Shown here piece after piece: positions 4,415 to 26,589 of a stretch of DNA of 35,280 nucleotides; the stretch's first letter is position 1, and every line of letters begins with the position of its first letter. The notes beneath the pieces are model-generated. The model was not told where the DNA came from. It saw only the letters and a list, made by a program, of their open reading frames with translations, and searched no databases. The translations under genes and the position numbers were made by a program. The DNA lies in contig DATGHS010000223.1 of assembly GCA_035307785.1 (NCBI GenBank), positions 1 through 35,280 of the forward strand, given 5' to 3'. The DNA is from Gemmataceae bacterium (GTDB lineage Bacteria > Planctomycetota > Planctomycetia > Gemmatales > Gemmataceae).

Positions 4415-5443
4415 TCACGTCTCCCCCAGCAACGTCGGCACCTTCTCGCGCAACAGGTCGATTTCCTGGTGCGTCTCACCGAGGTACGCCAGCAGCTTCA
4501 GGTCGTCACGGCGGACGGTGCCTCCGGAAAGCAACCACGAGCGCACGCGGAAGAGCTTGTACAGCTTCACGAGCTTGCGGTCGCTGATGAAGATGCGGTC
4601 TTCGCGCACCAGGGTTTTCACGATGCGCTGGAATTCGCGGAACACGTCCGGCGGGAAAAACAAATTGCGGTCGTTCTGCTCCTCGCTGTGCCGGCCATCT
4701 TCGATCTTGCGCGCGAACATGTAGGTGAGGTAGCGATTGGCTTTCAGCAAGTCTTCCAGCGTGCAATGCCCTTCCGCCCAGGGCCGCTGATTCAGGCCCC
4801 GCCATGATTCGGATTGGAGCCCATTGTCAATTAGCTCGGTAAAGAACTCGTCCTGCACGCTGCGGCTTTCGATCTTGAGCACGAAGCGGTCTTTCAGCGC
4901 CGCCAGTTCGCCTTGCTCCGGCACCTCATTCGTGGCCGCGAACAGGATGCGCAACTTTACCGGCACCGGGATGCCGTCCTGGTAGAACTTCTTTTCGTTA
5001 ATGATCGTGAGCAGGATGTTGAGGATCGCGGAGTTCGATTTGAAAATTTCATCGAGGAAGGCCAGCCGGGCCGTCGGCAGCTTGCCCTGCTCGCGCCGGA
5101 TGTAGCGGCCGTTGCGCAGTTCATTGATGTCGATGGGGCCAATTATTTCCGATGGCTCAGTGAAGCGCGTGAGCATGTACTCAAAGTAATCTTCGCTGCC
5201 CAGGCCTAGCGCGTCTTTGAACTTCAGCACCATGTCCGACTTGGCGGTGCCCGGCGGTCCGACCAACAGCAATGGCTCTTGAGCGATGGCGGCAACCACC
5301 ATCAGGTCGATGATGTCTTGCTTGTCCACGAAAAAGCGGTTGAGCGAAATGCGAAAACGGTTGATTTTCCCGCGCAATTGCTCCGCCTCTTGCTGCAACT
5401 CGGCAAACGTGGCTTCTTCGGCTTTCTCCATCAAGTCCGGCAT
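4415..5443 (-). CDS. AAA+ ATPase, MoxR/RavA-like (AAA_5-type)
   Basis: Walker A LLLVGPPGTAKS. Walker B LAFLDEIFK. Sensor region FAATNE. No adjacent VWA-domain partner seen. Confidence 0.8.
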   Translation of the reverse strand: MPDLMEKAEEATFAELQQEAEQLRGKINRFRISLNRFFVDKQDIIDLMVVAAIAQEPLLLVGPPGTAKSDMVLKFKDALGLGSEDYFEYMLTRFTEPSEIIGPIDINELRNGRYIRREQGKLPTARLAFLDEIFKSNSAILNILLTIINEKKFYQDGIPVPVKLRILFAATNEVPEQGELAALKDRFVLKIESRSVQDEFFTELIDNGLQSESWRGLNQRPWAEGHCTLEDLLKANRYLTYMFARKIEDGRHSEEQNDRNLFFPPDVFREFQRIVKTLVREDRIFISDRKLVKLYKLFRVRSWLLSGGTVRRDDLKLLAYLGETHQEIDLLREKVPTLLGET

Positions 5444-13777: not shown

Positions 13778-14263
13778 CTATTTCAGGATCTTCACTTCCA
13801 GGATGCCGTCGCGGCAGGAGTGCGTGACTTTCTCCGGCACCGGTGCGAACGGTAAGACGACTTCCTTCATGTACTTGCGCGAACCTTTTTCGGCGCTGAT
13901 TTTGAGCGTTTCACCAACCAATTCCACCTTTACATCTTCGCTGGCCACGCCAGGCATGTCGGCCACAATGCGAATCTGCTCGGCCTCTTCCACGATTTCA
14001 GTGCCGGAGGCATCGCCGGTCGGCGTGCCTGGGCGCCTAGCCGGATTGCCGATTTCGATGGTCAGGGCGGGCCGCTCCAGATCCGCCTTCACGGTGAGGC
14101 TATATATGCCGTGTAGGCCCGTGCCCTCCGGGAAGACGCCTTTGCGCACCCGCTGCACGCCGCTTTCGGCCAGCTGCTGCACGGAATTGACGACATGATG
14201 CAGATTCGACAGCAAGCCCTTGAGGGCTTCGTCGGACGTTGGTTTCATTGGTTCTGAAGACAT
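13778..14263 (-). CDS. Hsp20/alpha-crystallin family small heat-shock protein
   Basis: IVADMPGVASEDVKVELVGETLKISAEK...EVVLPF...DGILEVKILK is the classic ACD pattern. Confidence 0.85.
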   Translation of the reverse strand: MSSEPMKPTSDEALKGLLSNLHHVVNSVQQLAESGVQRVRKGVFPEGTGLHGIYSLTVKADLERPALTIEIGNPARRPGTPTGDASGTEIVEEAEQIRIVADMPGVASEDVKVELVGETLKISAEKGSRKYMKEVVLPFAPVPEKVTHSCRDGILEVKILK

Positions 14264-14311: not shown

Positions 14312-17300
14312 TTAACCGGATTTGCGGGCCATGCGCGAGGCGCTCAATAGCCCATTATGCGAAGAATAGGCCAGTTTGGAAGCGGGCGGGTAGGCCACGG
14401 CATTCAACTTGCCGCAATCGCTTTGAAGCGTGAGTTGCGGTTCGCCGTTTTCGAGCTTCCAAATGCGCACCGTACCATCCCAGCTACAGGAGGCAAGTTG
14501 CTTGCCGCTTGGAGAAAGCGACAGGCAGCGAATCGATTCGCGATGTCCGCTGAGCGTTTGAATTTCGCGACCGGAGGCCAAATCCCAGCGCTTGATGGTG
14601 GTGTCCCAGCTTGCCGAAAAGAGTGTCTGACCATCGGGGGCAAAGAGGACCGAGCTGACCGCCAGGCCATGACCCGTCATCGCGAGCAGTTCTTCGCCGG
14701 CGGCCTGATCCCAGAGTCGTGCGGTCTTGTCCCAACTGGCGGATGCCAATGTCAGCCCATTCGGCGCAAAGGCAAGCGAAGTCACCATCTTTTCGTGGCC
14801 GGAACAAACGGCGCGGGCGCGGCCGGTTGCCAAGTCCCAGAGCCGGATCGTGCGGTCCCAGCTTCCGGAGGCCAGCACTTTGCCGGATGGATGGAATGCC
14901 AGCGAAGTGACGGCCCCCTTGTGGCCGGTGAGCGTCGCACGTTCGGCCTTGTGCTCTATGTCCCAAAGCTTGATGGTCGAATCCCAGCTGGCCGAAGCAA
15001 GAGTCTGGCCGTCGGGAGCGAATGCCACGCTGGTCACTTCGCCAGTATGGCCGGGAAGCACGACTAAGAGTTCGCCGGACGCGATGTCCCAAATGCGAAC
15101 GGTCTGATCGGCGCTGCCGCTTGCCAGGAATAGGCCATCCGGGGAGAAGGCGAGCGAGTTCACGTCCCGGGTGTGCCCCTTCAACTGGCTCAGCTGCTTG
15201 CCAATCTCGGCATTCCAAAGGGAAACTACCTGATCATTGCCCGCCACAGCCAGCACGGTAGCGCGCGTCGACACCGGCACATTCCTCACGTCGCGCGAAA
15301 CGAGCGGCACGACATGCGTTTCCGACACGCTGCCGCCTGGCGGCATGTCTTCCGTAGGGACCATGTCGTTGAAGCGGGGGATCGGCCTGGCCGGAGTCAG
15401 TTCTAAATCCGAAACGGAAGGTGCGGTGGTCGCACTGCCTGTGGCTTCCTCAGCCGTCGCGCGCGGTCTTCCAGAATTCGCTTCCCAGAAGTAGATGATT
15501 CCATTTGCCCCGGCGGCAGCCACGGTCTTCCCGTCCGGGCTAAATGTCACAGCCGCAATATCGGTTGGAAGACCGGTCCATTCGAAGCGCGATTTGCCGG
15601 TGATCGAATGCCAAAGCTTGACCGAGCGATCGGCACCGGCAGAGGCCAACAACGAACCGGTGCCGGAAAACGCTACAGCCATGACCGGTCCTTTGTGGGC
15701 ATCGATATCCACCCATTCGGCGCCCGTGGCCACGTCCCACAATTTCAGCTGTCCATCGACGCCGCCGGTGGCGACGGCTTGACCTTCCGGCGACATCGCC
15801 AGGCAGCGAATTTCCCGGCCATGCGCGGCAATATGATGCTTCTCGCGCCAATTGGCAAGGTCGAAGATCCGCAACATGCCCATCCCGTCGCCCGTCGCCA
15901 GGCTCTTCCCTTCTTGCGCCGCCGCAATAGCGCGCACCGCAGAATCGTGGCCCAAGAGCGATCGGCGAAGTTGTCTTGTCTGCAAATCCCAGACTTTCAC
16001 CGAGCCGTCTTCGCTGCTGGTAATCAACACCTGTCCATCGGGCGGGAATGCCAGGCCGGTAACAGGCCCGCCGTGGCCCGGTAAGGCCATCATGTCCTGG
16101 CCATTGGTATTCTCCCAAAGGCAAACTTTGCCCGCGCTATCGGCGCTGGCCACGAGCCGGCCATCGAATGGAAATCCAACGGCTGTAACTTCGCTGCCGT
16201 GGCCCTGCAAGCGCGAGAGGATTTCCCCGCTGGCGGCATCCCAGAGAAGCACTTCATTGCCGGAGCCCGACGCCAGAAATTGACCATCGGGTGAATAGGT
16301 TAACGCCTTGATCGGCTTACTGGCAATTCTCGAAAGCACCGATGGTTGCGACGGCTTCGCCTGTAGCTTGCTGGACTTCGGGTCTAACTTCGGGACCGCT
16401 GACTTGCTCAACGCCGGCGCCGATTTTCTATCGGCAGCCAAACCGGGCATCTTCGAGGCAGGCAGGGCTGCCGGCGCCAAAGGCAGCGCGGGGCTGCTTG
16501 CCTTGGCTGGCGCGCTTGCCGCCGGTAGTTGCAGGTTCGCCTTCGATTCCGATTGTGGTAGGCCGGAGGGCTTCTCTTCACCGAGTTGAACCGCGATGTT
16601 ATTCAGCTGCCGGCCCGTGCCCAGGTCCCAAGTCTTGACCGTGTGATCGAGGCTGCACGAGGCCAGCCCGTGGCAATCCGGGGAAAAGGCGATCGACGTG
16701 ACCACGCCGCCGTGGCCTTGCAAGGTCGCGCGCAACTCGCCGCTTTCCGCGCTCCAGAGCTTGACCGTGCGATCCCAGCTGGCCGTCGCGAGATATCGTC
16801 CATCGCGGGAGAAGGCAACGGCGGTCACCTCGCCGCCATGTCCGCGCAACGTGGCGCGTTCCTTCCTGGTTTCCACGTCCCAGAGCCGAATGCTGTGATC
16901 AAGACTGCCGGACGCCAGAGTTTTCCCTTCCCGCGAGAAGGCGACGGAGGTAACGTCACCGTTGTGGCCTTTGAGAACTGCCGCGGTCTTGCCCGTGTTC
17001 ACGTCCCATAAGCGCACCGTTTTGTCCCAGCTGCCGCTGGCCAGCAGCAAGCCACTGGGTGCATAAGCTACCGAGGTGACCATCTGCTCGTGCCCCTCGA
17101 GGGCCCTTAATTCGGCGCGGTCTTTTAAATCCCACAGCCGGACGGTCTTGTCCCAGCCACAGCTGGCCAACCGCGACCCGTCGGGCGAAAACGCCAGCGC
17201 CGTAACTACGCCCGTGTGGCCTTTAAGCGTGGTCACCGCATCGCCGTCGGGAAGCCGCCACAGTCGCACGGTCTTGTCCCAACTGGCACTGGCGAGCGTG

Positions 17301-18607
17301 AGGCCGTCGTCGGCAAAAAGAACGCAACTCACCACCCCGCCGTGGCCGCTCAGCGTGAGCAATTCGTTGCCGCTGGCCGCATCCCACAATTTAATTGTTT
17401 TATCCCAGCTCGCCGTAGCTAGCGCTTTACCGTCGGCCGAAAACGACAACGAAGTGATGTCTCCAGAGTGGCTCGAACTGCTGACAATTCTTGGACGCGA
17501 GGCAGCCTGCTCCGCCACCAGCTCCCAGTCAAAGCGGCTGGCCTTCGGGTTTGGAAGGTCCTGGTCGTGTACCAAATCCAGCGCCGGAGGATCTGCTAGA
17601 GCTCCGCCGTCTTGTACCGCTGGCGGTATCGACTCGCCGGCTGGCAAGCCGGTTGCGACTACAACAGGCACAATCGACGTCTGCCCCTCGCGTGGAGGCG
17701 GCACGGTCTTCGGCGGGGTTACCGGAGGCGCTGGTGGCTGGGCCGGCTCCTCTTTTTGCCAAGGCTCTATTGGCGGCTTGGAGCCACCCGCATCAAAGTC
17801 GACTTCACTGCTGAGCTCGGCTGCCGGGGCCACCGAGTCGGACGGAGTAAACAGATTCACTTGTTGTTTTTGCAGAACGGTGGCCATGCCCAGCCATTGG
17901 GCGAGCGTGTGATATTGCACCGCGGCTGGTGATTGGGGGTTCATCGCGATCACCGCCTTGCCGGCCAGCAGCGCTTTCGGCACCTCTGCGTCATAGGGAA
18001 TGGTTTGCGGCAGAATATAACGGCCAAAGATATGCCGGAGATCCACGTCGAAGCCACGGCCCGCAGTCTCGCCCGGTGGCATGGTGAGGAGGATGCCGCG
18101 CATCTGCACCGCGCTTCCTTGCGACTGCATGGCCTTGATGAGCTGGAGAAACATCGGCAATGTCCGGTACGACATGGGCTCGGCCCGGATGATCAGCATC
18201 AAATTGTCGCTGAAGAAAATGAGCTTGCGGAGCAAGTCACCGGTGACGATGGGCGGCGAATCGATGACCAGCCAGCCGTAGCGCTGCGATGACGGGTGCC
18301 GCGACACCGTCTTGAGAAAATCGTCCATCGGCTGCGTGAAGGCAGCGCCGTCACTAGCCGGTTGGATCACGTCGAGGCCGGGGACAACGTTGCGCCAAAC
18401 CACGCCGTCGGCCGCGATGCCCAGTTCGCGAAGCTGCGCTTTATCGGCATGGAGGTGTAAATTGAGTGACGCGGCAACACTTCCCAAGGGATCGGTATCG
18501 ACCAACAAGACCGGAATGCCTGACAGAGCCGCGGCGGTGGACAGATTAATAGCCGTCGTGGTCTTTCCGACGCCGCCTTTCTGGCTGGCGATCAACAATT
18601 TTCGCAC
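14312..18607 (-). CDS. Giant ParA/MinD-family ATPase fused to three WD40 beta-propellers (ORF extends to 18748; GTG 18607 after GGGGAGG avoids a 100-nt overlap with the upstream gene)
   Basis: N-terminal deviant Walker A LLIASQKGGVGKTTTAINL, Walker B WLVIDSPP. Pro-rich linker, then three blocks of ~7 WD40 repeats (GH..V.S.AFSPDG..LAS.S.D.T..LWD) separated by Ala/Pro/Ser/Lys-rich linkers. 1431-1478 aa. Confidence 0.8.
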   Translation of the reverse strand: MRKLLIASQKGGVGKTTTAINLSTAAALSGIPVLLVDTDPLGSVAASLNLHLHADKAQLRELGIAADGVVWRNVVPGLDVIQPASDGAAFTQPMDDFLKTVSRHPSSQRYGWLVIDSPPIVTGDLLRKLIFFSDNLMLIIRAEPMSYRTLPMFLQLIKAMQSQGSAVQMRGILLTMPPGETAGRGFDVDLRHIFGRYILPQTIPYDAEVPKALLAGKAVIAMNPQSPAAVQYHTLAQWLGMATVLQKQQVNLFTPSDSVAPAAELSSEVDFDAGGSKPPIEPWQKEEPAQPPAPPVTPPKTVPPPREGQTSIVPVVVATGLPAGESIPPAVQDGGALADPPALDLVHDQDLPNPKASRFDWELVAEQAASRPRIVSSSSHSGDITSLSFSADGKALATASWDKTIKLWDAASGNELLTLSGHGGVVSCVLFADDGLTLASASWDKTVRLWRLPDGDAVTTLKGHTGVVTALAFSPDGSRLASCGWDKTVRLWDLKDRAELRALEGHEQMVTSVAYAPSGLLLASGSWDKTVRLWDVNTGKTAAVLKGHNGDVTSVAFSREGKTLASGSLDHSIRLWDVETRKERATLRGHGGEVTAVAFSRDGRYLATASWDRTVKLWSAESGELRATLQGHGGVVTSIAFSPDCHGLASCSLDHTVKTWDLGTGRQLNNIAVQLGEEKPSGLPQSESKANLQLPAASAPAKASSPALPLAPAALPASKMPGLAADRKSAPALSKSAVPKLDPKSSKLQAKPSQPSVLSRIASKPIKALTYSPDGQFLASGSGNEVLLWDAASGEILSRLQGHGSEVTAVGFPFDGRLVASADSAGKVCLWENTNGQDMMALPGHGGPVTGLAFPPDGQVLITSSEDGSVKVWDLQTRQLRRSLLGHDSAVRAIAAAQEGKSLATGDGMGMLRIFDLANWREKHHIAAHGREIRCLAMSPEGQAVATGGVDGQLKLWDVATGAEWVDIDAHKGPVMAVAFSGTGSLLASAGADRSVKLWHSITGKSRFEWTGLPTDIAAVTFSPDGKTVAAAGANGIIYFWEANSGRPRATAEEATGSATTAPSVSDLELTPARPIPRFNDMVPTEDMPPGGSVSETHVVPLVSRDVRNVPVSTRATVLAVAGNDQVVSLWNAEIGKQLSQLKGHTRDVNSLAFSPDGLFLASGSADQTVRIWDIASGELLVVLPGHTGEVTSVAFAPDGQTLASASWDSTIKLWDIEHKAERATLTGHKGAVTSLAFHPSGKVLASGSWDRTIRLWDLATGRARAVCSGHEKMVTSLAFAPNGLTLASASWDKTARLWDQAAGEELLAMTGHGLAVSSVLFAPDGQTLFSASWDTTIKRWDLASGREIQTLSGHRESIRCLSLSPSGKQLASCSWDGTVRIWKLENGEPQLTLQSDCGKLNAVAYPPASKLAYSSHNGLLSASRMARKSG

Positions 18608-18648: not shown

Positions 18649-19302
18649 TCAGCGTTTCAACAGTGAGTCGTTCAAATTGCGGGCCAATGTACCAAATGCC
18701 GCGGAAGCCACACCTTGAGGAGGCGGGACCCCGGCCTTGAGCGCCCATTCGCGCATTTCCTGCTGCAAAGGAATGACCGGGCTCAGTAGCAATTCGCGAT
18801 GTCCTTCTTGTAACCGGCTAAGCACAGCGCGTTGCACTTCATCCTGGGCATCATAAATGCCGACTAGCAATCCCAATAATTCGAGCCGGCGATTGGCTTC
18901 TCGCGCCTTGCCAATTATCATTGCCGCGGCCGGCACCGTACGAATGGACAGCGGGTCTGCCAAGCTGGTGAGAATAATGCCGTCCGCCGCGCTCAGCACT
19001 CGCTGTGACAACGGATCAAGCAGCGACGGACTATCCACAATCACAATCTGAGTCTGGTGCGGGCCGGCAAGTGCTTCCAGACCGGTCTGAAATTGCACGT
19101 TCGGCCACGGGCACTGGCCGGCCGAATTCAGCGCCACCATGCTCATGGAACGCATCGGTACCGCGTCCACAAGCGTGACCGAGTGGCCCGCCTGACCCAA
19201 ATGCCAGCCCAGGCATAGCGCCGTAGTCGTCCGCCCGGTACCGCCCTTGTGGCTGACGATTCCCAAAATGTAGGGCGACCTCGCCAATGATTTCTCCTTC
19301 AC
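18649..19302 (-). CDS. ParA/MinD-family P-loop paralog with Walker A Lys-to-Arg (SHKGGTGRTTT)
   Basis: 217 aa. ILGIVSHKGGTGRTTTALCLG: signature first Lys present, GK[ST] Lys encoded as CGG (Arg) at 19231-19233 (checked in DNA). Walker B-like QIVIVDSPS. Confidence 0.7.
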   Translation of the reverse strand: MKEKSLARSPYILGIVSHKGGTGRTTTALCLGWHLGQAGHSVTLVDAVPMRSMSMVALNSAGQCPWPNVQFQTGLEALAGPHQTQIVIVDSPSLLDPLSQRVLSAADGIILTSLADPLSIRTVPAAAMIIGKAREANRRLELLGLLVGIYDAQDEVQRAVLSRLQEGHRELLLSPVIPLQQEMREWALKAGVPPPQGVASAAFGTLARNLNDSLLKR

Positions 19303-19537
19303 CGGCTCTTCGCCGAATGCTTGCTCTTGGAACCACGCCCGGCCATCACGTTGATCGGTGTGTCACATTCCTCAGCCGGGGCATGCAATGCCACGTACGA
19401 GTTGGCCAGGAATGGCCGCAACAGCGCAAGAACCTGATTCATCTGCTCACTTTCGGCTTCCAACCATTTCGGATCGAGGGTATCCACGACAATCAGGCTC
19501 CACGGGCGACCTTAAAGGAATGGTTTCGTGGATCGTC

Positions 19538-20296
19538 TCACACACGTGTCTGTTCCAGTGCTGCCAGCACGTCGGCATGATTTTTGCGCCCATGCCCGGC
19601 GAGCGGTTGGAGCCGCTCCGGAACCGTAATGACAAACCGGCTGCGGTCAGCGCCGCAGCTGAAGCAATCCGTTTGCAAGCAATCGAGTTCGGTCCCGGAG
19701 AAGACCGAAAACATGCCGCTCAGAAAGCCGGCCAACAGGGTCTCCACCGGTTGGCCGCCTTGCCGAACGCTTGCCCCCAGCATCGGTGTTTCCACTTCGA
19801 CGGTCAACAAGCCGCGGTCATAGCGGCTGAAACCAAATTGGAAGGTGCCCCAGCCATGATGCTCAAACGCCTGGGCGAGATTGGCACTGAACATAGCCAT
19901 CGGCAAATCCAGCAGCGCTTTGCCGAAATGCTGCTGCATTTGCGCCGCAAATTGTTCCGCTGCCTTGCGGCCCCATTCCCGGCCCGTCGCTTTCAGCACC
20001 GGCAACGCCCGATCCCCCATCTGCCCCTCCAACGAATTGCAGAAAGCGAGCAGGAAATCGTCGGTGAGGGCCAGCATGCGCACGCCGGCCCGATTCTGCA
20101 TCGTGCCCTTGCGCAGATCGTGCTCGATATAGCCGGGCTCGCCGAAGTAGTTGCCCTTCAGCAGCAGGCCTTCTGTATTGGCTTCCATTTCAAGCTCTTG
20201 TTGGTCTTGCCGCCACAAATCCATGTTCGGAGCCGGGGTCGCAAACGGCCGGATTGAGCGCCGTCTCCCATCCGGTCGCTTGCGCTCTCGGCTCAT
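19538..20296 (-). CDS. V4R (4-vinyl reductase / Bet3-like) domain protein (alternative start M at 20224)
   Basis: C-terminal ETLLAGFLSGMFSVFSGTELDCLQTDCFSCGADRSRFVI matches the V4R consensus (G.L.G......G..v.v.E..C...G...C.F.I). Confidence 0.5.
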   Translation of the reverse strand: MSRERKRPDGRRRSIRPFATPAPNMDLWRQDQQELEMEANTEGLLLKGNYFGEPGYIEHDLRKGTMQNRAGVRMLALTDDFLLAFCNSLEGQMGDRALPVLKATGREWGRKAAEQFAAQMQQHFGKALLDLPMAMFSANLAQAFEHHGWGTFQFGFSRYDRGLLTVEVETPMLGASVRQGGQPVETLLAGFLSGMFSVFSGTELDCLQTDCFSCGADRSRFVITVPERLQPLAGHGRKNHADVLAALEQTRV

Positions 20297-20315
20297 ATCC
20301 GTCTTTTAGCTACCG

Positions 20316-20852
20316 TTACGCACTCGTCGCCGCGGGTTCCGGCAGTTCGCTCAAGACTTCAATATTTCGGTCCAAATACGGTTGCAAAAGGGCCGCGGTT
20401 TGCGGGCTGGTATGCTTGGCCACTTGATCGCGCAAGAGCGTGAAGCAATCGCGGCTAAACTTCGGGCTGAAGTTGCCGGCCGCTAAAACTGTGCGCAGCC
20501 AGAACAAGACTTTTTCATCCAGCCAGCGCATGTGGTCGAGAATCATTGCCTGCACATTGAAGCGCAGCACCAATTGTACGTCGTTCTGCGTTTTGGCCAG
20601 CGCCGGGCCCTTTATCGCCGACGATTCCGGATAGCGCTGCTGCATCGCTTCGATCACTGCTTGAACGATGACGTCCTCATGCTCCTGCACCTGATCGGCC
20701 GCTTGAAAGCGCGCGGGCAGCGAGGCGGCTTGGGTCAGCAGCGCCCGTCGTTCATCGGCGTGGAAATAGCGCCCTTCGGCGCCACGGACGAGACTTTGCA
20801 ACTGCGAGTTCATGGGCGAACCTTTCTTCCAACCAGCCTTCCGGCGTGTCAT
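20316..20852 (-). CDS. Phycobilisome-like (globin-fold, PF00502-like) protein lacking the bilin-attachment Cys
   Basis: Aligns along its length to phycocyanin alpha: LVRGAEGRYF~AADTQGRFL, AMQQRYPESS~AVYQKFPYTT, WLDEKVL~PMDEYLI, AAGNFSP~STFDLSP, C-terminal L..YLD..I..L. Cys of the CARD chromophore site is absent. Confidence 0.5.
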   Translation of the reverse strand: MTRRKAGWKKGSPMNSQLQSLVRGAEGRYFHADERRALLTQAASLPARFQAADQVQEHEDVIVQAVIEAMQQRYPESSAIKGPALAKTQNDVQLVLRFNVQAMILDHMRWLDEKVLFWLRTVLAAGNFSPKFSRDCFTLLRDQVAKHTSPQTAALLQPYLDRNIEVLSELPEPAATSA

Positions 20853-21806
20853 TCATTCCCAGGCGGCCAGCGCCATCACCGTCGCCACCGTCCAGGCCGC
20901 ACCGCCGGTCGGCCCATAGCCGAAGAGAGGGACACCCTTGGCCAATGTGATCGTTTCCTTTTCGAGACCAGCGAGCGGATCGCGAATGGGATGGCGAACC
21001 TGATCCGGCCGGTTGCGCCAGTTCATCAGAGTAAAGTATCCCGCGGTCGTTACATTTCCCAGCGGAATAAGATCGGCTGTCGGCACATTCGGTTGTGTGA
21101 CGGGCTTGGACAGAGCAACCGGGATCGGGGCGGGCTTTTTTTCCTCCCGGGTGTTCCGCCAGTTGTACTTTTGCAAAAAGGAACTGGCCGGCTCGAGGGC
21201 CAACTCGGGTGGCGGCGCCGGCTTTTCCACTGCCTGCATTTCCGCTTCGTCCGCGGCGAGCGCGAAATGAACCGGCACCACAGGCGTAATGGGTACCTTG
21301 GGCATTTCCACTTTTGTCGGCGAAGCCACGGGCGGCTCTTCTTTGGCGGGAGAAATTGCAGGCAGTTGCAATTCGGCTTTGGATGGTGAAATAGCGGGTA
21401 GCTGTAGCTCTGCTTTCGATGATGATACGGGAGGCAGCTTCAACTCTGCCTTGGATTGCGACGCGGTAATCCGTTGAAGTTCCGCCCTGGAGAACGAAAC
21501 GGTAGGCGGCAACTTGGTTTCAGGATCGGACGGTCTGGCCGGCATCGCCGGCGGCACGGGCAACGGCAAGGGCGCGATCGGCACTTGCGCCGCGGCCGGC
21601 AGCGCATCCAGGTCCACGTCTTCCAGTGCGAGGCCAGGGGAATCGAATATCGGATGCGATGCTTCCAGCCCCGGTGACTGCGGAACAAACCCTGCGGCCA
21701 AGGGTTGGTTTTCGTCGGGCGGCAAGGGCGGCATCAATTCGGCCAATAACTCTGCGATCTTGGCCCGCTCCGGAATTTCCCTGCCGTTCATATTGCTGCC
21801 AGCCAT
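20853..21806 (-). CDS. Proline-rich protein with four 12-aa tandem repeats (S[KR]AELQLPAISP) and hydrophobic C-terminus
   Basis: AAGGGG RBS-like 5 nt upstream of ATG 21806. Stop overlaps or abuts downstream gene start (20852/20853). Repeats encoded by ~36-nt units at 21348-21491. Confidence 0.55.
   Translation of the reverse strand: MAGSNMNGREIPERAKIAELLAELMPPLPPDENQPLAAGFVPQSPGLEASHPIFDSPGLALEDVDLDALPAAAQVPIAPLPLPVPPAMPARPSDPETKLPPTVSFSRAELQRITASQSKAELKLPPVSSSKAELQLPAISPSKAELQLPAISPAKEEPPVASPTKVEMPKVPITPVVPVHFALAADEAEMQAVEKPAPPPELALEPASSFLQKYNWRNTREEKKPAPIPVALSKPVTQPNVPTADLIPLGNVTTAGYFTLMNWRNRPDQVRHPIRDPLAGLEKETITLAKGVPLFGYGPTGGAAWTVATVMALAAWE
21348..21491 (-). repeat. Four imperfect ~36-nt tandem repeats encoding the 12-aa units of the Pro-rich protein
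   Basis: Encoded SRAELQRITASQ / SKAELKLPPVSS / SKAELQLPAISP / SKAELQLPAISP. Nucleotide units such as ggcagttgcaattcggctttggatggtgaaatagcg and ggtagctgtagctctgctttcgatgatgatacggga. Confidence 0.5.
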
Positions 21807-21907: not shown

Positions 21908-21936
21908 GGCCAGGGAGTTCGGTCCCTGGGTTTTCT
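21908..21936 (-). terminator. Rho-independent terminator-like hairpin after PDZ gene (7-bp stem CCAGGGA/TCCCTGG, 6-nt loop, T-run on both strands)
   Basis: Minus strand reads CCAGGGAccgaacTCCCTGGccttttt, 12 nt after stop at 21947. Plus strand also has gttttct after the stem. Confidence 0.5.
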
Positions 21937-23274: not shown

Positions 23275-26200
23275 ATGCACCGGGAGTTACGAACGACGAA
23301 CGAGGCGTTTCAACCGCCGAAGATGGCCGGGCTCTGCCTGTTCACCGGCTTGCTGCTCTTTCTCGTTGGCCGCGACTTGTGGCCTGATTTGGCCTCTTTC
23401 CTCGGCCGCCAGGGGCTTGACCTGCCCACCGGCTCGCGCGAACTCTTCGGCTTCCGCTATGCCCTTTATGCCGCGGTGATTGGCGGCGCCCGGGTACTTT
23501 ACGGTTCACTCGAAAGCCTGTTCGAAGGAAAGCTCGGGGCCGATCTGGCGCTGGCGGTCGCCTGTATTGCCGCCATTCTTATCGGCGAACCGCTGGTTGC
23601 AGCGGAAGTCGTCCTCATCGGCCTGATTGGCGAGTGTCTGGAAGGCTTCACGTTTGCCCGCACGCAAAACGCCATACGCAAGCTGGCCGAACTTTTCCCC
23701 ATTCGTTGCTGGGTGGTGCGCGACGGACAGGAAATGCGCATGTTCGTAAGCGACGTCGTGGTGGGCGATGTCGTCGTCGTAAAGCCAGGGGCCAAGGTGC
23801 CGGTCGACGGCAACGTGCGCGACGGCCGCTCGGCTGTGGATGTGAGCGCGCTGACCGGCGAAAGCTTGCCGGTGGATAAAGGGCCGGGCGACGAAGTCTT
23901 GGCGGGTAGTTTGAACCAGAATGGCGCCTTAACGATTGAAGCAAAGCGCGTGCAGGAACAAACGGTCGCCGGCCGGGTGCTGGAACTCACCGCGAAGGCA
24001 CTGAAGGAAAAAGCTCCGGTAGCGCGGCACGCTGACCGGTTGGCGAAGTACTTTCTCCCAGCCGTGCTGGCCCTCGCCGCCGTGACCTTCATGGCGAATC
24101 TGCTCTGGTACGCGGGTCCCTTCCGCGGGGAAGCGGTGCGCTTGACGCTGGGCCAGGCGGCGCGGCTCAGCATGTACCCGGCCCTGGCGGTACTGGTGGT
24201 CGCATGCCCGTGCGCATTGATTCTCGCCACTCCGGCAGCGGTTATTGCCGCGCTCGGCCGCCTTGCGGGCACCGGGGTCCTGCTGAAAAGTGGGGCCGCG
24301 CTGGAGCGCCTGGCTGGGGTCACGAGTTTTGCCTTCGACAAGACTGGCACCCTAACGGAGGGCAAGCTCGAACTTGGCGATATTCTGCCGGTCGATAGCA
24401 CCACTCCACCGGAACAACTCTTGCGCCGGGCCGCCAACGCGGAACTGCCAAGCGAGCATCCGCTGGCTCGCGTGCTGGTGCAGGAAGCGCAGCGGCGATC
24501 ACTCGTGCTTGATCCGGTCGAGGAATTCATTGCCCATCCGGGAGCCGGCGTGCGAACGCGGGTTGGCGGCAAAACGCTGCTCGTCGGTACACCGCGGTTG
24601 CTGCAGGAGCAAGGCCTGTCGCCCGGCACCGAAGTGCGCGCACTGCTCGAGCGCCTCGAAAACGATGGCCAAACGCCATTGCTCATTGCCGCCGACGGCC
24701 GCATTCTCGGCGCCATTGGAGCGCGCGACCGTATTCGACCGGAAGCTCGCGGCATTATCGTGGAATTACGCGAATTGGGTATACAGGACATCTCGCTGCT
24801 GACCGGCGACCGGAACGCTGTGGCCGTGAAAGTCGCCTCGGACCTTGGCATCGAATCTGTGCATGCCGAATTGTTGCCGGCCGACAAGGCAAAGCTGGTT
24901 ACCGCCCAAGCGGACACGGAAGCAGCACAGTCGGTTGCCTTTGTTGGCGACGGCGTGAACGATGCGCCGGCACTGGCCAGCGCCACCGTTGGCCTGGCGG
25001 TCGGCGGCGGAGCCGAGATTGCTGCCGAGGCGGGCGACGTCGTGCTGATGGGCGATCCGCTGGCGCCGTTGCCGCTTCTGGTGCGCCTATCGCGGCAAAC
25101 GGTTCACATCATTCGGCAAAACATCGTCATCTTCGCGTTTGGCGTAAACATTGTCGGCATTGTCCTCACCGGCTGGCTCTGGCCGCTGCTTGCGCGCTCG
25201 CCGGAATGGTACGAACGCGCTCCGCTGGCCGGCGTGATCTACCATCAGCTCGGCTCGCTGCTCGTGCTACTGAATTCCATGCGGCTCCTGGCCTTTGAAC
25301 GCAAGAGCGTAAAGGCATCCTCCGGCCGGGTACGCAGCGCTCTACAGCAGCTTGATGTCTGGGTCGAGCGGGCCAGCAATGCGGATGAATGGCTGCACGA
25401 GCTTTCGCATCGCTGGAAGCCGATCGCGCTCGGCATCAGTCTCATCGGCGTTGCTGCCTACGCCGCGAGCGGCCTCACGCAAGTGGAGCCGAACGAAATT
25501 GCCGTGGTGCGGCGCTTTGGCCGGCCGCTTGAAGAGGATCTCGGCCCCGGCCTGCACTGGCGCTGGCCGTGGCCGGTGGAAACCGTGCTGAAGACACAGC
25601 CGGATCAAGTGCGCAGCGTGGAAGTGGGCTTTCGGGTGTTGAAAGATCGTCTGGCGAAAACAGAGGGTCAACAGACACGGGCCGCACTCACCTGGCTCAG
25701 CCAGCACGAAAGCGAAGGCGTGCTCCGGATCGAAGGCGAAGCCGTCATGCCCACCGGCGACGGCAACCTGATCGAACTCTTGGCCACGCTGCAATACCGC
25801 CTCCGCTCACCCCGACGCTATTTGCTGGAAGTGAATAATCCGGACGAAATTCTGCGCGCGAATTTGGAAGCGGCGTTGCGCGAACAGGCGGCCGGCGAAT
25901 CGTTTCTGGAATTGCTCACGCTGCGCCGGGCGGAGTTTCAGCGCGAGGTGTTCGCCCGCTTGCAGAAGCGCTTGCAATCCTACGGCGACCCGGGTCTTGG
26001 CATTGTCTTGGAAGGTCTTGCGCTGCGCGACCTGCACCCGCCGGCCCCGGTAGTGCCGTCGTTCCACGACGTGGCCAAAGCCGCCGAGGGGCACGACCAG
26101 ATGATAAAGGAAGCTGAGGCCGAGGCGCTGCGCATTCGCCGTGACGCCGAGAGCAAAGGGAAGGAAATCGAACGCCAAGCCGAAGCCGCCGCGCATCGCA

Positions 26201-26589
26201 CCGTGGAAATGGCGAAGAAAGACCGCGACGCCTTTCTGGCCTGGTACAGGCTGCGAACCGAACTCAGCCCGGCCGTCGAATCGCGGCTGGCAACGGAAAC
26301 GGTCGGTCTGATCCTGGCCGGGCAAGACGTAACCAGCGCCCTGGCCGACCATCAGCGCCGCCGGCAACAGCAACTGGAGAATCAGGCTTTCCTGGTTGAT
26401 TTCCGGCTGACGTGGATGGCCCTGGGCGAAACGCTCTCGCAGCGCGACAAGGTGTTCATCGATGCCGACAAACTCCCAGGCCGCCGCACGCTGCTGCTCT
26501 TCGGTCCGGACCAACTCACACCGCCGCCCATTATCCTTCCAAGCCGCATGCCAGGGCGAGGGCCGGGTGTGGAGGGGGAGGAACGCTAA
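23275..26589 (+). CDS. P1B-type (CPC) heavy-metal-translocating P-type ATPase fused in frame to a C-terminal HflK/SPFH (band-7) domain
   Basis: P1B ATPase motifs TGESLPVDK, CPCALILATPAA, FDKTGTLTEG, VGDGVNDAPALA. No N-terminal HMA/CxxC domain. After the last ATPase helices comes a TM helix PIALGISLIGVAAYAA, then the SPFH domain EPNEIAVVRRFGRPLEEDLGPGLHWRWPWPVETV, then an HflK-like coiled-coil tail (AEAEALRIRRDAESKGKEIERQAEAAA). Confidence 0.8.
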   Translation: MHRELRTTNEAFQPPKMAGLCLFTGLLLFLVGRDLWPDLASFLGRQGLDLPTGSRELFGFRYALYAAVIGGARVLYGSLESLFEGKLGADLALAVACIAAILIGEPLVAAEVVLIGLIGECLEGFTFARTQNAIRKLAELFPIRCWVVRDGQEMRMFVSDVVVGDVVVVKPGAKVPVDGNVRDGRSAVDVSALTGESLPVDKGPGDEVLAGSLNQNGALTIEAKRVQEQTVAGRVLELTAKALKEKAPVARHADRLAKYFLPAVLALAAVTFMANLLWYAGPFRGEAVRLTLGQAARLSMYPALAVLVVACPCALILATPAAVIAALGRLAGTGVLLKSGAALERLAGVTSFAFDKTGTLTEGKLELGDILPVDSTTPPEQLLRRAANAELPSEHPLARVLVQEAQRRSLVLDPVEEFIAHPGAGVRTRVGGKTLLVGTPRLLQEQGLSPGTEVRALLERLENDGQTPLLIAADGRILGAIGARDRIRPEARGIIVELRELGIQDISLLTGDRNAVAVKVASDLGIESVHAELLPADKAKLVTAQADTEAAQSVAFVGDGVNDAPALASATVGLAVGGGAEIAAEAGDVVLMGDPLAPLPLLVRLSRQTVHIIRQNIVIFAFGVNIVGIVLTGWLWPLLARSPEWYERAPLAGVIYHQLGSLLVLLNSMRLLAFERKSVKASSGRVRSALQQLDVWVERASNADEWLHELSHRWKPIALGISLIGVAAYAASGLTQVEPNEIAVVRRFGRPLEEDLGPGLHWRWPWPVETVLKTQPDQVRSVEVGFRVLKDRLAKTEGQQTRAALTWLSQHESEGVLRIEGEAVMPTGDGNLIELLATLQYRLRSPRRYLLEVNNPDEILRANLEAALREQAAGESFLELLTLRRAEFQREVFARLQKRLQSYGDPGLGIVLEGLALRDLHPPAPVVPSFHDVAKAAEGHDQMIKEAEAEALRIRRDAESKGKEIERQAEAAAHRTVEMAKKDRDAFLAWYRLRTELSPAVESRLATETVGLILAGQDVTSALADHQRRRQQQLENQAFLVDFRLTWMALGETLSQRDKVFIDADKLPGRRTLLLFGPDQLTPPPIILPSRMPGRGPGVEGEER

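Follow-up and report, generated by a model that had tools for sequence, protein, structure and literature searches.

A phycobiliprotein-fold globin and a V4R protein encoded next to two ParA genes in a Gemmataceae bacterium, in a reduced relative of bilin-associated gene clusters

The complete 35,280-bp contig DATGHS010000223.1 (GenBank assembly GCA_035307785.1), which belongs to a metagenome-assembled genome (MAG) of a soil planctomycete of the family Gemmataceae (Planctomycetota) and is referred to below as the window, carries on its minus strand two adjacent genes, one for a globin related to the phycobiliproteins and one for a V4R-domain protein, followed by two genes of the ParA family. 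A preliminary description, made from the nucleotide sequence, had suggested that the globin and the V4R protein form the input or cargo-adaptor end of the gene cluster. The reading towards which we lean is that the two genes encode a globin of the type named BBAG (bilin biosynthesis-associated globin) and a clade-B V4R protein, both belonging to a reduced bilin cluster, that these proteins work with a ParA machine, and that the globin has ceased to carry a covalently bound bilin.

The globin gene (20316..20813, −) encodes a protein of 165 aa and the V4R gene (19538..20188, −) a V4R clade-B-like protein of 216 aa, named V4R-B. Both products are 100% identical to deposited proteins labelled ‘MAG TPA ... 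Gemmataceae bacterium’. The preliminary description had recognized the two genes and placed them correctly, with starts too far upstream: orthologues and the deposited annotation indicate that the globin starts at 20813, in an open reading frame (ORF) that remains open to 20852, and that V4R-B starts at 20188, in an ORF open to 20296. The globin matched the Pfam family PF00502 (Phycobilisome) with E=1.9e-17 and 64.1 bits (cut-off 22.2), over profile positions 8-154 of 155, and the profile of its family aligned end to end with phycocyanin alpha of Gloeobacter (2vjr_A). The GRYF, QQRYPES and NFSP segments of the globin paired with GRF, NKFPY and NLSP of 2vjr_A, in agreement with the GR[FY], QKFPYTT-like and FDLSP-like motifs reported before. 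An AlphaFold2 (AF2) model of the globin (predicted local distance difference test, pLDDT, 87; predicted template-modelling score, pTM, 0.82) was matched by Foldseek to phycocyanin and allophycocyanin chains with template-modelling (TM) scores of 0.75-0.81 over 163/165 columns and a probability of 1.0. Superposed on phycobiliprotein structures, the model was seen to have a helical fold like that of globins, the N-terminal X-Y hairpin included. The full-length resemblance to phycocyanin alpha proposed earlier was therefore borne out by family search, profile comparison and predicted structure alike.

The globin did not behave as a phycobiliprotein subunit in the corresponding NCBIfam models (CpeA, 22 bits against a cut-off of 225; CpcA, 18 bits against 269). 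Its family profile gave 126-186 bits with the globins of bilin-associated clusters (L015-L018; loci used for comparison are cited by L or P numbers), and at most 41 bits with the phycobiliproteins of the PDB. The window globin was 42% identical to the globin of L016 and 38% identical to that of L015, both of which lie in full bilin clusters. The assignment to BBAGs was made from these profile scores. It is well supported that the product of 20316-20813 is a phycobiliprotein-fold globin, a BBAG-type paralogue of phycobiliproteins.

The bilin-attachment site of this globin is degenerate. The Cys of the AKCARD motif (Cys84 of 2vjr_A) aligned to Thr75 and the Arg to Asn77, while Asp78 was kept, so that the CXRD motif reads KTQND in the window (20580..20594, −; from the profile alignment). 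The lack of a chromophore-binding Cys at this position, noted earlier, was thus confirmed, and the Arg has been lost as well. The form KT-x-x-D was found throughout the P0001-P0010 clade. In four lineages of the globin family the site reads KCYRD, KCFRD or RCARD, and in the remainder it is x-x-R-D without Cys. Among 119 single-domain representatives of the wider family, which numbers roughly 460 representatives in all, Arg was present in 82% and Asp in 96%, with Cys in a minority; all eight sister-group sequences had the Arg. Arg77 and His68 are the two polar residues conserved family-wide that have been replaced only in the window clade, and the fact that their replacements vary looks like a relaxed constraint on the pocket. 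We infer from the alignments that the window globin is no longer a covalent bilin protein, and that its retained role would lie mainly in protein-protein contacts or, at most, in non-covalent ligand sensing.

V4R-B matched PF02830 with E=1.1e-7 and 32.2 bits, just above the cut-off of 31. Its AF2 model (pLDDT 69, pTM 0.72) was matched by Foldseek to the sensor domains of MopR, PoxR and DmpR and to Bet3/TRAPPC3 (E=4e-7 to 1e-5 for MopR, PoxR, DmpR and Bet3), as well as to MJ1460 and BcsD; the family search and the predicted structure thus agreed with the V4R fold first proposed for this protein. The C-terminal V4R segment DCLQTDCFSCG is present at 19652..19684 (−). Of the three Cys to which the preliminary description had drawn attention, C170 and C175 are conserved among orthologues and C178 varies. 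Zinc is coordinated in DmpR through a Cys/Glu/Cys/Cys site (PMC7264223). At the corresponding positions V4R-B has Glu149, Gln172, Cys175 and Ser183, one residue of the four being kept. The full site is retained in PoxR, MopR, every clade-A-like V4R protein (V4R-A) and the deltaproteobacterial V4R-B.

Proteins of these two families are known as neighbours. The pre-PcyA ferredoxin-dependent bilin reductases (FDBRs) of heterotrophs, Planctomycetes included, are encoded in clusters with heme oxygenase (HO), an Fe-S protein, V4R proteins of clades A and B, and a globin (PMC10151467), to which Rockwell, Martin and Lagarias gave the name BBAG in 2023 (PMC10151467). Binding of bilins by the tested BBAGs has been shown experimentally, and some of them have a CXRD motif; their function is unknown (PMC10151467). 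It is well supported that the globin/V4R pair of the window is the BBAG and V4R module of these pre-PcyA clusters, and that its form in the window is a reduced one: no gene for HO, FDBR, ferredoxin, kinase or V4R-A was found anywhere in the 35 kb. Two features behind the name BBAG are missing from the window globin, namely adjacency to bilin-synthesis genes and the CXRD motif, which occurs in tested BBAGs though not in all BBAGs.

The globin and V4R-B genes lie in a tight row of minus-strand genes in the order Trp-motif protein, globin, V4R-B, small ORF, ParA-1, ParA-2::WD40 and Hsp20, with intergenic gaps that are short or overlapping. Both ParA genes reported downstream of the pair were found there. 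ParA-1 (18649..19302, −) is a small ParA/MinD-family protein (PF01656/AAA_31; NCBIfam ParA_partition). The second is the N-terminal domain of ParA-2 (14312..18607, −), a protein in which a canonical KGGVGKTT ParA domain of ∼240 aa is followed by a Pro-rich linker and ∼19 WD40 repeats; its ORF reaches 18748, and a GTG at 18607, with GGAGG 8 nt ahead of it, is the likely start. The deviant Walker A motif KGGxGK[ST] is present in ParA-2, whereas ParA-1 reads KGGTGRTT instead, its P-loop Lys being replaced by Arg. The variant motif SHKGGTGRTT (19225-19254, −) shows no variation among the ParA-1 orthologues of L001, L016 and L015. ParA-1 of the window is orthologous to ParA-1 of L016 (41% identity) and L015 (37%), and the N-terminal domain of ParA-2 is 45%, 40% and 28% identical to the stand-alone ParA proteins of L016, L015 and L018, respectively. 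An electron-donor ATPase of the NifH/BchL type, to which faint Fer4_NifH matches pointed, was ruled out by the lack of any Cys in the ParA-2 domain. An anti-phage defence system was likewise rejected, PADLOC having returned generic WD40 and P-loop matches only.

The first gene of the row (20853..21806, −) encodes a disordered, Pro-rich protein of 317 aa, the Trp-motif protein, for which searches of Pfam and NCBIfam gave no match. It contains a conserved N-terminal helix with basic residues (RAKIAELLAELMP), two internal motifs of the form hydrophobic-x4-N-W-x-N (FLQKYNWRN and YFTLMNWRN), and a C-terminus ending in AAWE. A protein of like design was found between V4R-A and the globin in all clusters examined, across phyla (L001, L004, L013, L015, L016 and L018). 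The shared design consists of disorder, a basic N-terminal helix, two hydrophobic-x4-N-W-x-N/G motifs, and a Trp 1-3 residues from the C-terminus (AAWE, VAWQ, DWKD, IAWE, FAWD, IEW or VAW in the different clusters). In the ParA-type positioning of carboxysomes, the invariant C-terminal Trp of McdB binds the cargo, while its basic N-terminus addresses its ParA (PMC11321042). By analogy, the Trp-motif protein is a candidate McdB-like adaptor or scaffold. As an adaptor it is more plausible than either the globin or the V4R protein, for which that part had been proposed.

A further resemblance was seen among the products of this row. The V4R-B model also resembled the cellulose-synthase subunit BcsD in the comparison with the PDB, with weak matches to Pfam Cellsynth_D, and the small ParA gave weak BcsQ matches. 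BcsD forms filaments with the proline-rich BcsH. The combination of a Pro-rich protein, a V4R/BcsD-like fold and a ParA/BcsQ-like ATPase echoes BcsH-BcsD-BcsQ, and may perhaps reflect shared folds only.

The close family of the window globin comprised 19 proteins with 44-100% identity, all of them from soil metagenomes or Gemmataceae. A profile scan of genome contigs with seven family members yielded two Gemmataceae genomes only, and a metagenome scan yielded five short loci; the window-type family is therefore rare and the co-occurrence numbers are small. Wherever the contig was long enough, the order Trp-motif protein, globin, V4R-B, ParA-1, ParA-2::WD40 was constant, the two ParA genes following directly after V4R-B in every close-family locus that reached far enough. 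A second V4R gene, clade-A-like, was located upstream in most of these loci (V4R-A was present in eight loci other than the window).

When arranged by gene content, the loci form a reductive series. The full set has the order (kinase), FDBR, HO, 2Fe-2S ferredoxin, V4R-A, Trp-motif protein, globin, V4R-B, Ser/Thr kinase, ParA-1, ParA-2. It was found in the cultured planctomycete Saltatorellus ferox Poly30 (L015; CP036434.1, 126.7-147.2 kb), in a Gemmataceae MAG, where it lies beside a phytochrome-type kinase (L016), and in a JGI contig (L019); L020 has the same left half. HO and FDBR were present in these four loci, the FDBRs of the full clusters passing the Pfam cut-off, and the Fe-S protein was seen only in the more distant full clusters. 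A deltaproteobacterial MAG (L018) showed Fer2, V4R-A, Trp-motif protein, globin, V4R-B, one ParA, a kinase and HO. Closer to the window, L001-3 contained FDBR and V4R-A, with KCYRD as the globin motif; the FDBR homologue of L001 was 30% identical to the Pfam-positive FDBR of L016 (E=6e-13). V4R-A was present with no adjacent FDBR in L004, L006, L009, L011 and L013, and neither V4R-A nor FDBR was present in the window or P0006. That the loss of V4R-A goes with the loss of the CXRD Arg was disproved by the P0009 locus, where the motif reads KTTSD and V4R-A is present. It is well supported that the window lineage has lost HO, FDBR, ferredoxin, kinase, V4R-A, the Cys and Arg of CXRD, and three of the four zinc-site residues of V4R-B. 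It is equally well supported that this lineage fused WD40 propellers to ParA-2, and that the genes for the Trp-motif protein, globin, V4R-B and both ParA proteins have stayed together in it as a single operon.

The reduced operon is not decaying. In the comparison with the L013 orthologues, the proportion of nonsynonymous differences (pN) was far below that of synonymous differences (pS) for globin, V4R-B, ParA-1 and Trp-motif protein, so that these genes are regarded as being under purifying selection. The corresponding ratios of nonsynonymous to synonymous rates (dN/dS) were 0.14 for the globin, 0.12 for V4R-B and ∼0.16 for the Trp-motif protein (0.09-0.16 when ParA-1 is included), values that are rough because dS was saturated.

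Several observations concern the more distant clusters. Immediately before the L016 cluster, on its upstream side (L016:1-2341, −), are genes for a GAF-PHY-PAS phytochrome-type histidine kinase, another kinase and a response regulator, so that the HO of this cluster may also serve a phytochrome. Fusions of a 2Fe-2S ferredoxin to a Ser/Thr kinase adjoin BBAG clusters at L016:5182-6810 and L017:15870-17450, and kinases that stand alone are encoded within the L015, L016, L018 and L019 clusters. In addition, metagenomic sequences (P0042, P0085, P0093, P0119 and P0068) encode poly-globins of 835-979 aa with six or seven tandem phycobiliprotein-like globin cores, several of which have K-x-x-R-D motifs. 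A 761-aa relative (L020:1588-3873) is encoded just upstream of a complete FDBR-HO-Fer2-V4R-globin-V4R cluster. To our knowledge, such poly-globins have not been described.

How the products of the operon might work together can be pictured as follows. The globin and V4R-B would form a complex, by analogy with Slr0144-Slr0149 of Synechocystis, and in the ancestral cluster this complex would have received bilin from HO and FDBR. A ParA-type positioning machine may have this complex as its sensor/regulator or as its cargo; in that machine ParA-2 would be the working ATPase and ParA-1, with Arg for the P-loop Lys, a regulatory partner. The Trp-motif protein could then be the adaptor that connects complex and ATPases, a role like that of McdB. 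The window lineage would have given up the pigment chemistry and retained the protein-protein role. Synteny gives strong support to a functional linkage between the ParA genes and those for the globin and V4R-B, and the suggestion that the pair may be the input or cargo end of the cluster is a reasonable conjecture.

A number of points weigh against the proposal of a ParA-linked globin that no longer carries a covalent bilin. All the evidence that would couple the ParA proteins to the globin and V4R-B is of one kind, gene order, and in one Myxococcota MAG (L017) the cluster and its kinases have no ParA within 10 kb. The V4R-B model is of moderate confidence, as its pLDDT of 69 indicates, and the saturation of dS makes the selection estimates approximate. 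As to the globin itself, it still has the invariant Asp78 and many of the other residues conserved throughout the family. The Cys is missing from many BBAG-like globins in any case, and its absence alone therefore carries little information. Finally, genes for HO and FDBR may lie outside the 35-kb contig, and the globin may still bind bilin non-covalently.

These last points lead to the principal rival explanation, in which the globin is still a working sensor or carrier of bilin or another tetrapyrrole, bound non-covalently, with pigment supplied by HO and FDBR encoded elsewhere in the genome. V4R-B would then assist in retaining the hydrophobic ligand or in passing it on, and the ParA pair would be the output of a ligand-controlled switch. 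Besides the invariant Asp78 and the retention of most family-wide conserved residues, this explanation can appeal to the related globins, about three quarters of which have no Cys and yet retain the RD pair, to the pre-1 clusters, which are sometimes split across the genome (PMC10151467), to P0009, where V4R-A is retained beside the same Arg-less motif, and to the purifying selection on the genes. It has to contend with the variable replacement, in exactly this clade, of His68 and of the widely conserved Arg77, with the failure to find HO, FDBR or ferredoxin within 35 kb, and with the degenerate zinc site of V4R-B, a site that shapes the ligand cavity of characterised V4R domains. We consider this explanation possible, if somewhat doubtful. 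That the globin is instead a light-harvesting phycobiliprotein or a haem-based gas-sensing globin is scarcely credible. The PF00502 match and the full-length structural match to phycocyanin alpha are what such a view could build on, and they are outweighed by scores far below those demanded by the subunit models, by the missing attachment Cys, by the lack of lyase, linker and photosystem genes in a heterotrophic Gemmataceae host, and by the weak fluorescence and photoinert behaviour of the BBAGs characterised to date (PMC10151467). A haem globin was ruled out by the family alignment, in which no His is invariant and hence no proximal haem ligand is available.

It might also be supposed that the adjacency to ParA has no functional meaning, the globin and V4R-B being leftovers of a decaying bilin cluster that happen to lie beside an unrelated ParA-WD40 system. 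Such a decay would fit the disappearance of V4R-A and of the genes for bilin synthesis, together with that of the CXRD Cys and Arg and of the zinc ligands in V4R-B; it would also fit the Myxococcota cluster without ParA. A decaying remnant would hardly show pN far below pS in globin, V4R-B, Trp-motif protein and ParA-1 alike. The order globin, V4R-B, ParA-1, ParA-2 is moreover kept in every family locus of sufficient length, over the whole range of globin identity; orthologous ParA pairs recur in the distant planctomycete clusters L015, L016 and L019, with one ParA in the deltaproteobacterial cluster; and the genes of the row are separated by short gaps or overlap. Chance adjacency is thus largely refuted, and we regard it as very improbable. 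The ParA-linked BBAG/V4R module of a reduced bilin cluster, free of covalent pigment, remains the account that we prefer.

BBAG globins and their V4R partners, which occur in heterotrophs and in cyanobacteria (slr0144-slr0149), are the presumed stock of the cyanobacterial phycobiliproteins. Their genes travel with two ParA genes, with one for a Ser/Thr kinase and with one for a Trp-motif protein resembling McdB, and this association offers a first concrete handle on their function. That the ParA-linked part has outlived both the genes for bilin synthesis and the attachment site points towards a role in signalling or in the organisation of the cell interior, and not in the storage of pigment. 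Nothing known is overturned by this interpretation, and Saltatorellus ferox Poly30, a cultured organism with a complete cluster, allows it to be tested. A bolder proposal, which we put forward as unlikely, is that BBAG/V4R complexes, perhaps with poly-globins, form a discrete intracellular assembly in heterotrophs, which a dedicated ParA system of two components would position or organise by means of a multivalent adaptor, the Trp-motif protein. Were this true, a ParA-positioned ‘proto-phycobilisome’ body would be older than light harvesting, and the window lineage would show the assembly and positioning function outlasting the pigment chemistry.

The remaining features of the row, and some other genes of the window, can be described briefly. 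A conserved small ORF of 62 aa (19299..19487, −), the end of which overlaps the ParA-1 start by 4 nt, has the consensus D.KWLEAE.E.M..LALL.PF. A homologue of 64-66 aa occupies the same position in L013/L014, and ORFs of 63 and 57 aa were called at this position in the P0006 and P0011 loci; the ORF is absent from L001. The Hsp20/alpha-crystallin gene (13778..14263, −; PF00011), probably the last of the operon, also follows ParA-2::WD40 in the 52%-identical L001 locus (L001:16522-17064) and was not seen in L006. Its product may act as a chaperone, either of the large WD40 protein or of the assembly. A promoter/terminator scan showed a terminator-like hairpin (21910..21929, −) in the interval that separates the operon's first gene from the PDZ gene upstream of it; the site counts in this region were not above shuffled expectation, and the hairpin is weak evidence. 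On the plus strand, 23275-26589 (+) encodes a protein of 1104 aa in which the E1-E2 and HAD domains of a P-type ATPase are followed at the C-terminus by a fused SPFH/Band 7 domain, and a protein of equal length with the same three domains is encoded in the syntenic P0006 contig. A bpMoxR-type AAA protein is encoded at 4415-5443 (−), with unannotated ORFs and WD40 proteins nearby (7-1410). bpMoxR is a component of MoxR-vWA-beta-propeller ternary systems.

Compared with known systems, the globin shares with phycocyanin alpha and allophycocyanin the complete fold, N-terminal helical hairpin included, at TM 0.75-0.81 over the full length, and it keeps the GRY/F, FPY-like, D(87), LR and SP motifs. 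It differs from them in its low sequence identity (∼19%) and in having no equivalent of the attachment Cys or of Arg86. Unlike a phycobiliprotein subunit, it is encoded without an alpha/beta partner, lyase or linker gene, and it fails the NCBIfam subunit models. V4R-B shares with MopR, PoxR, DmpR and Bet3/TRAPPC3 an alpha/beta two-layer fold and a C-terminal E-x-C...G...R-F segment; proteins with this fold form dimers and have a hydrophobic ligand cavity. In contrast to MopR, PoxR and DmpR, it is a stand-alone protein, with neither an AAA+ nor a DNA-binding domain, and keeps one of the four zinc positions.

The likeness to McdA/McdB is one of architecture alone, the Trp-motif protein having no sequence homology to McdB. 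In both systems the gene for a ParA-family ATPase adjoins that for a disordered partner, and the partner encoded in the window is basic at its N-terminus and carries a Trp-acidic motif at the extreme C-terminus. The window differs in having two ParA paralogues, one of them with Arg for the P-loop Lys, and a partner in which the Trp motif occurs three times; microcompartment genes are not present.

A second comparison is offered by the slr0144-slr0152 operon of Synechocystis, which contains a BBAG, two V4R proteins, a ferredoxin, a TPR protein and the SpkG kinase. The link between SpkG and ferredoxin-5 parallels the kinases and Fer2-kinase fusions of L015-L019. This operon is not known to contain a ParA gene. 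The operon is tied to photosystem assembly or repair in a phototroph, whereas the window belongs to a heterotrophic planctomycete and its locus has neither kinase nor ferredoxin. In Synechocystis sp. PCC 6803, slr0144-slr0152 descends from the same ancestral cluster (PMC10151467), and Slr0144-Slr0149 co-fractionate and co-purify (PMC9880817).

The closest comparison is with the BBAG-1/BBAG-3 clusters (pre-1/pre-3). The main text of PMC10151467 and a further BBAG paper do not mention ATPases or the Trp-motif protein and do not discuss kinases as part of the cluster, and in the literature searched no paper brought V4R and ParA together with heme oxygenase and a phycobilisome protein. Three things appear to be new: the extension of the cluster by the Trp-motif protein, the kinase and the ParA pair, the reductive series, and the WD40 fusion. 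The supplement of PMC10151467 contains no accession lists against which the planctomycete clusters could be matched. The window departs from these clusters in having no HO, FDBR, Fe-S protein or V4R-A nearby, in its degenerate CXRD and lost V4R-B zinc site, and in the WD40 fusion and Hsp20, which are specific to this Gemmataceae family. It shares with them the adjacency of both protein families, the same order (V4R-A, globin, V4R-B in its relatives) and the same fold; relatives of its globin sit with HO, FDBR and a 2Fe-2S protein, and Planctomycetes are among the listed hosts of pre-1 (PMC10151467).

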